64,000 bases of DNA from Eledone cirrhosa (GCA_964016885.1 OZ024740.1:262446001-262510000); one strand, 5' to 3'; positions 8,405-63,397 are shown, counted from the stretch's first letter. Made by a program: numbers and translations. The notes: generated by a model not told the origin, from the sequence alone.

Positions 8405-8530
8405 AGTTTTAATATAGATGAGATTCTACAGGACTAGAACTGTTTCATTCATTAGAAATCATCAGATTCCTGATGATTTCTAATGAATGAAACAGTTCTA
8501 GTCTTGTAGAATCTCATCTATATTAAAATT
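8405..8530. repeat. Near-perfect palindrome (~61-bp arms, 4-nt loop) with hammerhead core
   Basis: 8405-8465 is the reverse complement of 8470-8530. The right arm reads CTGATGA-tttctaatgaat-GAAACAGTTC. Confidence 0.9.
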
Positions 8531-11500
8531 TTTTATACTCTGCTATGTATTGAGTACCTTACTTACTGTGGTTACCTCCGATTCAACCCGGAATAACGTA
8601 TATATATATATATATATATATATATATATATATATATATATATATATATATATATGTGTGTGTGTGTGTGTGCGTGTGTGTGTGTGTGTGTATATACACA
8701 TACACCTTATATCTAATTTTATTTCTTTATATAAGCCCCTGTTATTCGCTATATGATGTTTCAACCTCTCCTATTCTCTTTATTACATTTTCCTCGTCAA
8801 CGTTTTACGAATTCCCCTGTGACTGACTCTTACTATTTCACTATATTGGTTAATGTCTGTCATTTCACTCCCTGGGATCTCTCCTTTTCTTCCTGTTATT
8901 CTTTCTGACAGCCTCTTTAACTTGTCTCTGTCACTCCCTCTCTGGCATCCCCCCCATATAAAAACATATAGTGTACGTTACTCTCAGACAAGTTGCACTC
9001 ACCTTGCATTCTACACTTTGCTTTCTTCTTCTCCGTATTCCTTCACTCCCTATTCTCAATAAACTCTCCTATACTACAACTGTTAATCATTTATTCTATC
9101 ATCATATTCATTGCCTCTCTCAATCGCGGATTACACTCCCCCATTTCCCTCATTCTGTTACACTGACGGATACAAGCGGAAGAGATCCATACATACCAAT
9201 AAATACACAAACGCAGACACCCCAAAACACACACACATACACACACACATACATACACAATGGCATACGCACACAGCAGACATAGTTTTTCCTTACATGT
9301 TAAGAAACAAAATGAAGCCAGGTATTTGAGACAGCCATCAGATTTATGCCAAAGGTGGTTTTGTATTCATAATATAACAAAACATGTGTCATGTCCATAA
9401 AGGAACTGAAATGTTGAGGGCCAAAGGAAGGATCTATTATAAGCCGTCTTAAAACAGATAAAGTTTAGCGCCTAAATTTCCTCGGCTTCTTTATTTCCTT
9501 TCAGCACATATAAAGAAAAACAAACACTAGTCTAATACACCCACCCAGACACACACACACACACACACACACACGCACTTACACACACCTATCTATATAT
9601 GTATATATACATTAATAGATATATTTATATATGTGTGTATATATATATATACATACATACACACATAAACACACAGACACGCACAAACAAACACACACAC
9701 AGATTAATAGATATATGTATATTATGTGTGTGTATTTATATATTTATCTCATTATATATATATATTTATTTCTCTCTCTCTCTCTCTCTCTCTCTATATA
9801 TATATATATATATATATATATATATATATATATATATATATATAAGTGTGTGTATATATATATATATATATATATATATATATATATATATATATACACA
9901 TATATATATATCTATGTATGATGTGTATGTGTCTGTAGCAAAAAGCTGAAGAGAAACGGCATTCAAACTTTCCAGTATTACTACGATAATACATGGTCAA
10001 AGTTAATGTAGGATTTATTTTTATCTATAAATTCTTTCTTTTTTATATTAGTTATGGTGCCTATTGGCAAGAATTATTTTTATATATAATATACTTGCTG
10101 TCATTTGGAAGTGATTCAAAAGATCATTTCTATATATTCTGACGACTGTTCGATTCCCAGTTGAGTAAAATACATTCTACTTCAATGTCTCTTGTGTCCC
10201 AATGTGTCCCTTACCTCTCAAGATATTTGCCGATAATTCAGAAAGAATTTATTACATCAAAGCTGTTCATATATATCACATTGGCGACATACATTTAAAA
10301 AAAAATATGATTTATTATTGCTCGTTAATCAAGTTTTGTTTACGACACAAAATGAACGAAATTAATAAATAATCAATTGAATAACCTATCATATATCAGT
10401 TATCACATGTTTAATTTGCCGCAGAGTTGTCAGACCTTAAATATGCTTCACAGACAAATTTAAGTCCTCGATAAGTGTCCTATTTTACATCTTTTATTAA
10501 TGTTCTCTCTCTCTCCCTCCCCCTCTCTCTCTCTCTCTCTCTCTCTCGCTCTCTCCTTTTGTCTCTTTCTCTTTCTCCTTTTGTCTCTTTCTCTCTCTCT
10601 TTTTTCTCTTTCTCTCTCCCCCTCTCTCTTATTTCCTTCGCTCTCACTCTCTTATTTTCTCTCTCGCCCCCTCTCTCTCTTCTCTCCCTCTATCTTGCTT
10701 TTATTTCTTAATCATAGGGTGTATTAGATAACTTTCTCAGTCTGTCATTGTTTACAAGTTGAGATAATTAAATAAAAAAATATTATTTAAAAAGAAAGAT
10801 CACAGTTGTTTCACGAAAAGCCCAGAGATTACCGACGGCACCCAGTTTTGAATGCTCAAAATGATATTTATTTGTAACAGAGTAAAAAAACAATCAATTT
10901 CGAAAGAGGAGGGTATCGTCTATAGTTTCTAACATATAATGGATTATCCGTCGGTTTCAACGATGAATATTCAGTTGTTTGAGCAAGTAAAAGTCTATGT
11001 CATGAATTAACATGTAAGTTTTTCACGAACACACTTAACGTACGAGGGTCAGCTGAAAGTTCATATGCTGACTACGAAGGAATGATTATATAGCTGTGAA
11101 ATCTTATATTTACCATATTTAGGTTTATTCAATACATCTAAAATATATATCAATCATGTTTCTCAATAATACAGCTTGTAATCATTTTGAAGTATGTATA
11201 TTTACTTACGTAGTGTTTGCCCTGTATATGTACAAAATACAAATAATTCCTCATTTGATATATAAACTTTTTTATATATCGTTTAAACTTACATATATAC
11301 AGTATATATATATATATATTTAGTTCAGATTAAAAGGTTAAATAATGAATCTCTGATTTCTTCCTAAGTGGGATCACCTGAAACACATTGTTATTACTAT
11401 ATATATATATACACTCACACACACACACGCACATATATATATATATATATATATATATATATATATATATTTATATATAAAATACAATATGTTGAAAAGG

Positions 11501-12229
11501 TAACACACTAGAGAGAGATAGTGCGCCATCAATAAAACAGGGAAAAATCACCAGTGTATGGAATCTATAACCTATGAGAGGCAGGGTAGACACACAATAA
11601 TTACAAATATAAATTAAAATGTATATACGCACCTCTATAACTAGTTAGCTTTTCAACATATTGTATTGTAAAGAGGTCAGGATTCCTTTTCCTTTGACCA
11701 CATTATTAACGAGAGTCTATGGCTCCGTTAATTTATCGTGATATTTATACACACACACACACACACACACACACACACACACACACACACACACACACAC
11801 ACACACACACATATATATATATATATATATATATATATATATATATATATATATATATATACACATATATATAAGTAAATGAGACAGTTATAACTCCAAT
11901 CTGTCCGCAAAACACTGAGCAAATGTCCTAAACCGTACGCCAACCTGCACTCATAACTCCTGCTAAACAAATTCGCAACCCTCCCTTCAAACTGCGTAAA
12001 CCGAACACAGACCGCAGCAGCCATCAAATGAGGAAAACAGACATTATTAAGCTGCATCTGTCATATTAAGTAGTTTATATATATATATATATATATCAAA
12101 TATCAAACATTAAGTTATAAACTGGAAATAGTCTTTTACAATTAAATATATATATACATATATATTTCGTTTCTGAATTTGTTTAGCAAGATTCTTTATC
12201 TGAAAACGTGTGTTGAAACCGATATTGTT

Positions 12230-12800
12230 ATACTTTGGGAGGGTCATGTTGCCAATAAGAAATTAGAGAATATAGATATAAAAATAGAATCTACACACAG
12301 AAAAGACGCAATGTTTAGACAAATCACAGAGGCAATAAACATAAATGAACTCCAATCAAAATTAAATAGAAAGCATGAATGGAACAGCAACATCACAACT
12401 TACAATTAAGGACAAAATGAAAACACACACATACAACAAACAACCAACCAGTAACATGTAAATAAACAAATAAATAAACAAATGTAAACACACACAGACA
12501 CCTGATGTAACACATGCGCAAACTAAGCACACGCACACACAAAAACAAGATGGCGTAGGACAGAACAAAGGAGAGGCACAAAAACAAAGAAAAGAATACC
12601 CAGTCACTGAAGAGGTCACAGAATGTGTGAGGAAAGAACTTTGACAATATATGAACAATCGTCTGGTTGTGGAACCAACCAACCGGAAATTTATAAATTC
12701 CTAAATTAATAAATTTAATTTATAATAAATTGAAGTGAAAGCAACTGGTGCGTATGTTTCTTATCGGCAACATGACCCTCCCAAAGTATAACAATAAAAA
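12230..12800 (+). mobile_element. 5'-truncated PLE: GIY-YIG C-terminus, trailer and hammerhead
   Basis: Translation H...IKIESTHRKDAMFRQITEAININELQSKLNRKHEW. HHR at 12603-12645. Ends in poly(A) then (TA)n. Confidence 0.75.
12603..12645 (+). ncRNA. Minimal type I hammerhead ribozyme
   Basis: gtca-CTGAAGA-gg(tcaca gaatg tgtga)g-GAAAGAACTT-tgac. Stem I gtca/tgac and helix II pair. Helix III is weak. Confidence 0.65.
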
Positions 12801-61721: not shown

Positions 61722-62885
61722 CTAGCTGTGGTACCCGGCGTTGCACGGGATAAGGTATTTTGGAACGCGAGCAGCCAACAGACCTAATCATGGAAAAACT
61801 GCATGCCTGGACTATATGTAAAGAAAATAAACCGAATACTCTGATGGCTGGAAAAGCTTTAAGATTTTCCTCGATGAAGCAGGAAAAATGCAGGTTTTCA
61901 CCTAATGCGGGCTCTAGGCAATCAAGAAAATGAATTATTTTTATGTGCATAATATGCCTTGAAAAATCGGCTAGACGTAACGCCTAAAAAAAAGCCCTAA
62001 AAAGCTGAATAAATGAAGTTTTTCACCTAGTGCGGGCCCAAGGCCATGAAAAAGTTTGATTTTCCTTGCTCACGGTATGAAGAAGAGACAGACTAATACA
62101 TAGTTACAATTTCAAGGAAATCGGTCTGACGTAACGCGTTAAAATACCCCTAAAAACTGAAAAAAGCGCAGTTTTTCACCTAATGTGGGCCGTAGGAGAT
62201 CAAATAGTTGAATTTTTTATGTGCATAACACTCTCAGAAACATAACCCGGGCCACCAACAGACATAATCTTAGAAAAACTGCATGCCTGGACAATATGTA
62301 AAGAAAATAAACCGAATACTCTGATGCAATTAGTATTAGGTATGCTTATCCTTCCACGTGGAAAATATCGGCTTGGTGCTTTTGTACTTTAATAAAGTGG
62401 CATGAGTCAGCAAGACAGATATCACCACTTATGTCAGAGGGAAATCTGCAATGCTTGAGCAAGGCATGAAATGCAATCGGACAACATGTGGAGCCTTCTC
62501 GAAGGAGTCCACCGCACCTTAGTAAGTAAACACAACTGGAAAAACGTTTACCAAACTGTGGGTATAATTTAACAAATTTAGAGAGGAATGGTGCAATAAA
62601 ATGGGCCCCGAGGCGTGTGTGTGTTCACTGGCACCCCTAAACAAAAGGGTCGCCATCAGTTATTTCAAGGGCCCTTAAAATAGCCTTGTAAGCCGTACAC
62701 TGACACTCCAGTAAGGAGGGGTAATCATCAACAATTTGAAGTTATATTTGCTCAGAACACTCCCTGAAACATAAGTATTATATGTGTAAAGTTTGAAAAC
62801 AGTCGCTTGGGTGGTTCTCGAGTTTTAGGGATTCAAACTCACACACACACAGACAGATATCCTCAGTTTTATATATATATATATA
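61722..62885 (-). mobile_element. Non-autonomous Helitron
   Basis: Minus-strand 3' end CCCGTGCAACGCCGGG hairpin plus CTAG|T. 61840-62240 and 62745-62870 are inverted homologs of 47580-48375. Internal direct repeat 61772-61846/62252-62326. Confidence 0.88.
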
Positions 62886-62892
62886 TATATAT

Positions 62893-63397
62893 ACACTTAC
62901 GGTAAATATTGATGCAATTCAAATCAAGCACTCTACGTAATATTTCGACATAGGAACGGCGGAGTATATATAGAATAAGAAAATGCGAAGTAGTTGTAGA
63001 TGTTAAAGTCCTTTATTGATAAGGCTGTGATATATATTTCAATGACGACAGTGGCCACGCGATTCTACCTAACTAGTGCCATGATCTCATCAGGCAGCTT
63101 CTTACATATTAAGGTTATATTATCAAGGTAATCAAAATTAAAACGAAAAGAGAATGGACAAAGATGATGTTCTTGATAAGGGAACGGACGAAGGCTTCAA
63201 GAACACCATCTTTGTCCGTTCCCTTGTCGCTTTAATTTGGATTGCCTCAAAAAACGTAATGTAAGAAGCTATCTGATGAGATCATGGCACTGGTTAGGCG
63301 GAATCACGTGGTCACTGTCGTCATTGAAATATGTATCGCAGCCGTACCAATAAAGGACTTACATTTGAAAGCACTTCGCATTTTCTTATTGTATATT
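62893..63397. mobile_element. Fold-back cassette with an HHR in each arm
   Basis: Arms ~62965-63107 and ~63259-63397, tail 62893-62964, and (TA)n on both sides. Confidence 0.85.
63268..63342 (+). ncRNA. Type I hammerhead with 46-nt helix II (mirror copy 63024-63098, minus)
   Basis: Two-arm consensus gctgc-CTGATGA-[gatcatggca...tgtcgtcatt]-GAAATATATATC-gcagc. Confidence 0.75.

Follow-up and report, generated by a model that had tools for sequence, protein, structure and literature searches.

Endonuclease-bearing (EN+) Penelope-like elements (PLEs) have been described as inserting with an inverted, 5'-truncated copy, a tail of 30-40 bp and a bias for (TA)n targets, within which target-site duplications are masked, and the formation of this arrangement was named there as unresolved (PMC8557442). 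Paired minimal hammerhead ribozymes lying on opposite strands 100-700 bp apart have been interpreted as truncated PLEs of low activity for which dimers are needed (PMC4209133), and palindromic junctions have been read as self-priming on an antisense template (PMC3846280). The promoter and transcription start of Penelope have been located in its pseudo-long terminal repeat (pLTR; PMC2377424), both target strands have been reported to be cut and extended in vitro with two reverse transcriptase (RT) start sites bounding the tail (PMC11167929), and the extra G at full-length 5' junctions of long interspersed element-1 (LINE-1) has been attributed to the RNA cap (PMC11702581). Here we analyse seven palindromic cassettes in a 64,000-nt window of the 3.0-Gb genome of Eledone cirrhosa (GCA_964016885.1 OZ024740.1:262446001-262510000; G000:C1:262,446,001-262,510,000), a stretch of 38% GC that is rich in TA runs and transposon pieces.

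The cassettes share with the EN+ PLE insertion units of Craig et al. (2021, PMC8557442) and Arkhipova et al. (2013, PMC3846280) the inverted head-to-head copy, the one-sided tail, the pLTR hammerhead, the (TA)n setting, the palindromic junctions and the variable truncation. In the available text of those papers tails measure 30-40 nt, whereas the PLE-type tails here measure 68-163 nt, and ends at an inferred transcription start with an extra G were seen only here. The anole Poseidon element PAc (Frangieh et al. 2024, PMC11167929) offers the same both-strand cutting and extension, an AT-rich target, two internal RT start sites that delimit the tail, a predicted dimer and a hammerhead that is dispensable for insertion; the joining of inverted copies and cap copying are unaddressed, and the steps after priming left unvalidated, in the portions of that study available to us. 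LINE-1 twin priming likewise joins two primed complementary DNAs (cDNAs) end to end and shows an extra G at full-length 5' junctions (PMC11702581). The dual hammerheads of PMC4209133 had thus been recognised as truncated PLEs, and non-LTR retrozymes (bioRxiv 10.64898/2026.07.22.740005) are reported to involve tandem type I hammerheads derived from pLTRs, as in a satellite array found elsewhere in this genome; the window cassettes are head to head and hence are not retrozymes.

The inverted copy, the tail, the hammerhead and insertion at (TA)n have each been published for PLEs (PMC8557442 Fig. 2 legend, PMC4209133, PMC3846280). What appears to be new in these sequences is the junction footprint of one family, F1, whose arms, over 10,000 in number, stop at an initiator-like A that has a TATA box 30 nt above it. 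No description of a cap-derived G or of start-site run-off at inverted PLE junctions was found in the literature searched, which was mostly open-access and without supplements. We consider it probable that six cassettes, all but the one at locus 3, are pairs of 5'-truncated pLTR ends in which two cDNAs made on sense RNA were joined head to head.

Architecture and family identity of the cassettes

The original prediction, made from the window sequence, had proposed that seven loci of about six sequence families share one build: TA run, inverted arm, direct arm, tail and TA run. A comparison of the window with itself recovered this build at all seven: each has two arms in inverted orientation, a tail on one side and TA runs beyond both ends. 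The arms are about 60-750 nt long and 86-99% alike, and the tails measure 68-176 nt. Loci 2 and 4 belong to one family, which gives six sequence types among the seven loci, as had been suggested. We refer to the PLE-type families as F1 (locus 1), F2 (loci 2 and 4), F5 (locus 5), F6 (locus 6) and F7 (locus 7); in these six loci the 68-163 nt tail lies on one side and between two fixed ends.

TA runs of at least 8 nt terminate 59 of 75 F1 arms in a sample drawn without regard to the junction, which leaves out 24 of the 100 arms listed first. The corresponding background, a TA run of at least 10 nt within 12 nt and thus a slightly different threshold, amounts to 4.7% across the window and 9.6% in flanking sequence. 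An inverted partner within 1.5 kb was counted in the 30 best genomic copies of each family, the sample also used for the hammerhead counts below: it is present in 24 for F1, 19 for F2, 14 for F5, 13 for F7 and 9 for F6.

Judged from sequence, the six loci are pLTR ends of PLEs of five families, although for loci 6 and 7 we infer this. The view that the cassettes are PLE end products at (TA)n thus holds for loci 1, 2, 4 and 5, extends with less certainty to loci 6 and 7, and is not supported at locus 3. A link between arms or tails and RT/GIY-YIG PLEs was found for F1, F2 and F5, which join RT and GIY-YIG open reading frames (ORFs) elsewhere in the genome. One 41-mer of F1 has 10,171 exact genomic matches, and F2, F5, F6 and F7 have hundreds to thousands of candidate copies. 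Each repeated family shows two fixed 3' ends, one internal and one at the tail end, with (TA)n after them in most cases, and such ends are also visible in raw reads. In one F1 copy (L246) the cassette directly follows a TA run and its tail continues into a 758-amino-acid ORF, and the far end of the unit consists of promoter, hammerhead and internal 3' end. This ORF has 1,201 homologs, most of them unnamed, the top one of which bears the Pfam GIY-YIG domain. The F5 tail is followed by an RT-endonuclease ORF in tandem copies, and in F2 copy L248 RT and endonuclease lie directly upstream.

Pfam GIY-YIG was matched in the window only at 699-1082, which is 73% identical to the F2 endonuclease, and in the F1 homologs; the PLE RT pieces had no Pfam match, and their assignment to RT is made from motifs and homologs. 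A motif scan gave RWR (in place of RWK), DKT, CxCX5C and CxxC in the F1 ORF, and DKT, CxCX5C, CxxC and CxH in the F5 ORF, the N-terminus of which is broken. On the basis of these motifs, together with hammerheads and (TA)n targets, F1 and F5 resemble the Hydra clade of C-terminal EN+ PLEs as described in PMC8557442, whereas the endonuclease relatives of F2 carry a Neptune/Nematis-like CX4CxxC linker instead.

The F7 unit, about 1.27 kb long and without an ORF, was found as pLTR-body-pLTR (L530) by a DNA search; a pattern search for read-through past its tail gave no match, and the 1.27-kb body had no tblastn match in 25 loci. For F6 no ORF link was found, the adjacent PLE ORFs lying on the opposite strand or beyond TA runs. 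The suggestion that the cassettes are non-autonomous units is mostly not supported: in F1 and F2 the junctions differ from copy to copy, so these cassettes would be made anew at each insertion, and only F7 is ORF-less. The retrozyme definition asks for head-to-tail type I hammerhead units, and the cassettes are arranged head to head, not in tandem. A miniature inverted-repeat transposable element (MITE) or foldback DNA transposon was considered and rejected, given a tail outside the repeat and centres that differ per copy. Locus 3 stands apart from the PLE-type cassettes on present evidence: a genome search found no other copy, blastx against 129 PLE-related proteins found no match, and the type I descriptor found no hammerhead motif.

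This descriptor was custom-written after the motifs had been seen and admits a U4C core. It matches four of the seven loci, whereas 300 shuffles gave 0.03 on average and never more than 1, and it matches seven sites in the whole window against a mean of 0.15 in 20 shuffles. Among the 30 best copies, positives numbered 29 for F1, 26 for F5, 21 for F7, 19 for F2 and 14 for F6. An Rfam scan returned no hammerhead family among 146 matches at E<=1, nearly all of which were microsatellite or hairpin matches to microRNA models. The claim that most arms contain a core or half-core is borne out in part by the four matching loci; a complete core on both arms is present only at loci 5 and 7, and stem I of locus 7 is mismatched. 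Among the predicted ribozymes, the U4C core occurs in 26/26 detected F5 copies, a GUU triplet is present in many copies of F2, and a U-U pair closes stem II in F1. The F2, F6 and F7 motifs have very long stem II regions of about 45-120 nt. Further hammerhead motifs lie outside the seven loci at 5045 (-), 33454 (-) and 37876 (+), two of them with a long stem II.

The original prediction also envisaged hairpins with self-cleaving sites on both strands. This is doubtful, as one transcript would hold one sense ribozyme and an antisense copy, and the hairpin is predicted to be favoured over the ribozyme by 70-80 kcal/mol (locus 1, -104 versus -33 kcal/mol; locus 5, -290 versus -213 kcal/mol).

The F1 junction footprint and junctions in other families

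In a census of the first 100 listed F1 arms, taken without regard to the junction and with 96 ends recovered, the ends form a step at the start: 42 fall at +1 to +10, 8 at +11 to +25, 6 at -6 to -1, 6 at -99 to -7 and 34 further up. Position +1 is the initiator-like A. Of 22 copies that read through, 17 have a TATA box at -30, and a CCAAT box lies upstream; these names follow the usual promoter consensus sequences. Copying of the template would place C just before +1, but exact matching counts 1,868 arms with G instead. The 8,394 non-G matches at this position include a satellite, and the first 100 of them comprise 92 C, 5 T and 3 A as counted by eye. Position +7, which likewise has C as its templated base, served as control and gave 4 G, 11 A and 85 T among the first 100 of 1,213; the G:A ratio is 12:3 at the start versus 4:11 at the control (p=0.009).

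The extra G occurs on tail-bearing and tail-less arms alike. In a sample of 98 G arms from 89 F1 loci, upstream read-through was present in one arm, and eight loci had G on both arms, six of them with a single A or T between; two of these eight are separated by 2.3 kb and could stem from a single event. Among 36 unselected F1 loci, which include one duplicate pair, the tail-less arm is longer in 22, the tail arm in 11 and neither in 3, and in G-selected loci the tail-less arm reaches further 5' in 33 of 68. A simple fold-back, one of the two routes originally put forward, predicts that the tail-bearing arm is always further 5' and is not supported by these counts; the other route, two-ended priming, fits. 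Many junctions show 1-6 nt of microhomology or lie at natural mini-hairpins, and many copies either stand without a partner or extend into promoter and ORF.

Outside F1, support for a cap footprint is weaker in F2 and absent in F5. In F2, 2,212 non-templated ends lie at an initiator-like A against 187 at a control base, with patterns that differ in specificity, and at three loci both arms carry G at a site where extension of a hairpin would add C. Seven of the 13 F2 rows with A that were viewed are SINE (short interspersed element) junctions. The F6 ends form, by eye, a loose cluster 10-35 nt above the core.

A common SINE, presumably cephalopod-like, adjoins the F2 5' pile-up site repeatedly (L377, L381-L385, L398 and L058, with a 17-bp duplication in L058), which suggests that this site is a SINE insertion hot spot.

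Mechanism and rival explanations

In the mechanism that we favour, the element's enzyme would nick both strands of (TA)n, and two cDNAs would be primed separately on sense RNA, one per target strand. One cDNA may start at the tail end and the other at the internal site, in which case the tail would span the interval from one start site to the other, as seen in vitro with the anole PLE. Priming within the 5' pLTR of the transcript would let both cDNAs run off the capped 5' end, and run-off at an RNA 5' end resembles strong-stop DNA. The cap, copied as C in the cDNA, would yield the extra G, and the two cDNA 3' ends would then be joined through microhomology or short templated insertions. In LINE-1 twin priming the two cDNAs come from different parts of a single RNA, whereas both arms here span the same stretch, so that two RNAs or two passes would be needed. 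It is likely that both F1 arms were copied separately from capped RNA, and that the cassettes are dead-end insertions in which the hammerhead is a passenger at the RNA 5' end.

Several observations weigh against this mechanism. The F1 start site and its cap are inferred from DNA; the commonest F1 end is +2 (11 of 96), +1 accounting for only 3; and the start falls exactly where hammerhead stem I begins, the other strand of which is followed by C, such that a single G templated by the hairpin is possible. By hand count, the partner arm could supply the G in about 40% of F1 G loci. The G share in F2 is 22/100 versus 13/100 at the control (p=0.14), and F7, with 5 G, 7 T and 3 A of 15, gives no clear signal. 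F5 shows no pile-up below its TATA box (0/30) nor near its hammerhead and has scattered truncation instead, and locus 5 of the window is an F5 copy of this kind. Later deletions at palindrome centres could also make arms unequal, and the mechanism does not account for locus 3.

Such deletions form part of one alternative, in which a single cDNA folds back and primes itself, possibly on an antisense template as for rotifer PLEs, and the centre is subsequently trimmed. Fold-back with self-priming was proposed in PMC3846280, and the many junctions with microhomology or at mini-hairpins speak for it, as do 3 of 98 arms joined through stem I itself. However, a longer tail-less arm or a 1-nt loop is impossible by fold-back without later deletion, and these are found in 22 of the 36 unselected loci and in the six perfect palindromes whose two G-bearing arms are 1 nt apart, which cannot be self-primed loops. 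An antisense template would also give no reason for ends at sense TATA+30, and we regard this route as unlikely. Two cDNAs could instead have been stopped by RNA structure, at the stem I 5' edge or at splice-acceptor-like sequence, with the G supplied by the mirror hairpin of the cDNA and not by the cap. The pile-up of F1 and F2 at the stem I 5' edge would agree with this, as would the base after F1 stem I, which yields the same G, the D. virilis intron reported to end at helix I (PMC4209133) and the F5 TATA box, which is far from the hammerhead and has no pile-up below it. Yet F5 lacks a pile-up at stem I as well, mirror extension in F2 gives C at the three loci with G on both arms, and the TATA spacing suits a start site. 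Longer stem I extensions are rare in F1 (full in 3/98; next base T in 41/98). A spliced upstream exon as the source of G was rejected, as exon-like sequence preceded the G in 0/98 arms and no matching donor was found in 900 nt upstream, which also counts against a splice-acceptor-like stop. We judge a stop by structure improbable overall.

Self-propagating non-autonomous units of MITE or retrozyme type, copied whole and selected for a double-stranded RNA (dsRNA) or ribozyme role, would account for the 10,171 exact F1 matches, for the ORF-less F7 and for the existence of an F1-derived hammerhead satellite. This seems very unlikely, as the junctions vary among copies and the recurrent ones lie at microhomologies, many copies are unpaired or continue into promoter and ORF, and folding predictions place the ribozyme buried within the hairpin. 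Assembly is difficult at palindromes and microsatellites, and reads mapped at one double-G junction gave no clear spanning evidence, so that assembly or library artefacts at (TA)n could be suspected. But the arms differ by substitutions, loci 3 and 6 carry nested insertions in one arm only, and the ends are fixed across hundreds of loci. Raw Illumina restriction-site-associated DNA (RAD) reads from three runs labelled as the same species contain strand-switch joints at the F1 fold point, the joint 788>805 being seen in 9, 12 and 3 reads. Raw reads thus back such palindromic junctions in general, and we give the artefact explanation almost no weight. Paired cDNAs primed on sense RNA remain our preferred origin of the six cassettes.

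Individual loci, neighbouring elements and significance

At locus 1 the inverted tail-less arm (8405..8465, minus strand), which lacks stem I, halts at the first core base and shares a 3-nt microhomology with the direct arm (8463..8530, plus strand). The latter begins one base ahead of the inferred transcription start at 8464. A type I hammerhead occupies 8464-8514 on the plus strand, with a predicted cut after 8508, and the 68-nt tail (8531..8598, plus strand) runs in full-length copies in frame into the 758-amino-acid RT and GIY-YIG ORF.

The tail-bearing arm of locus 2 (13838..14184, minus strand) has the locus's one complete hammerhead motif, with its core at 14179 and a 116-nt stem II region, and ends in the tail (13838-13971, minus strand). 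The tail-less arm (14182..14378, plus strand) has a GAAA half only. Locus 4, of the same family (32490..32900, minus strand), has arms at 32624-32900 that fold near 32762 and a tail at 32490-32623; it is truncated below the first core half and shows GAAA halves only. Locus 3 (27651..30408) comprises arms at 27651-28533 and 29474-30232, a spacer of TA runs and other repeats, and a unique part at 30233-30408, with a SINE at 28354-28472 inside the first arm.

The tail-less arm of locus 5 (38224..38432, minus strand) is the longer one at the 5' end and has a hammerhead motif with U4C core from 38316; the direct arm and tail (38433..38757, plus strand) have a hammerhead motif from 38502 and a 163-nt tail at 38595-38757. 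At locus 6 the tail-less arm (42358..42742, minus strand) is interrupted by a nested element at 42416-42656, and the direct arm and tail (42743..42940, plus strand) hold a GAAA half and a tail of about 90 nt. The canonical hammerhead within this locus is a property of the nested element, which has 29-bp inverted repeats, its own canonical-looking hammerhead from 42573 (-) and related copies in a few loci. Locus 7 consists of a tail and tail-bearing arm (62894..63176, minus strand; tail 62894-62967, core at 63093) and a tail-less arm (63177..63396, plus strand; core at 63273).

Two further cassettes of the same build, absent from the original prediction, were seen in the window: an older F1-like pair at 3409-3555 and, at 12223-12813, one made up of an endonuclease end, a 3' region and an inverted piece of 40 bp. 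Fragments of PLE RT/GIY-YIG ORFs lie at 124-1085, with a small fold-back at 628-732, and at 39079-40790, 57334-58269 and 61175-61684. A two-ORF LINE, apparently intact (1,153-amino-acid endonuclease-RT), and a decayed neighbour that is 76% alike occupy 16391-21640 and 22012-27074; another RT fragment lies at 36131-37297 and Helitron pieces at 49549-52863.

Elsewhere in the genome, an F1-derived satellite of 78-bp units, each with a whole hammerhead motif, begins at about 30,497,000 of G000:C28 (L366-L373). Its junction has 1,444 exact matches, all on one strand, and is also present in raw reads, and the array fits the definition of a non-LTR retrozyme-like array. A short array of the same satellite lies at C1:350,200,300 (L364). 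An F5 promoter-region motif occurs five times on one strand at a spacing of about 1 kb (G000:C1:154,826,480-154,830,601; L580-L584), a possible tandem array.

F1 is a young family with an intact ORF, and its genome-scale footprint separates models for the origin of inverted PLE copies and makes them testable; in the literature searched, self-priming on antisense RNA (PMC3846280) was the sole published model encountered. We lean modestly towards the broader proposition that PLE integration is routinely two-ended, in that a dimer primes one cDNA per target strand, each of which can copy the cap before the two are joined head to head, and that the genome holds thousands of fossil strong-stop products made by an RT related to telomerase. 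If true, two-ended priming at a pair of RNA start sites would account at once for both the inverted pLTR and the tail, and two-ended cap copying would argue against antisense self-priming and make PLE start sites readable from DNA alone. The thousands of perfect hairpins could, if transcribed, feed dsRNA pathways, their ribozymes likely being buried.

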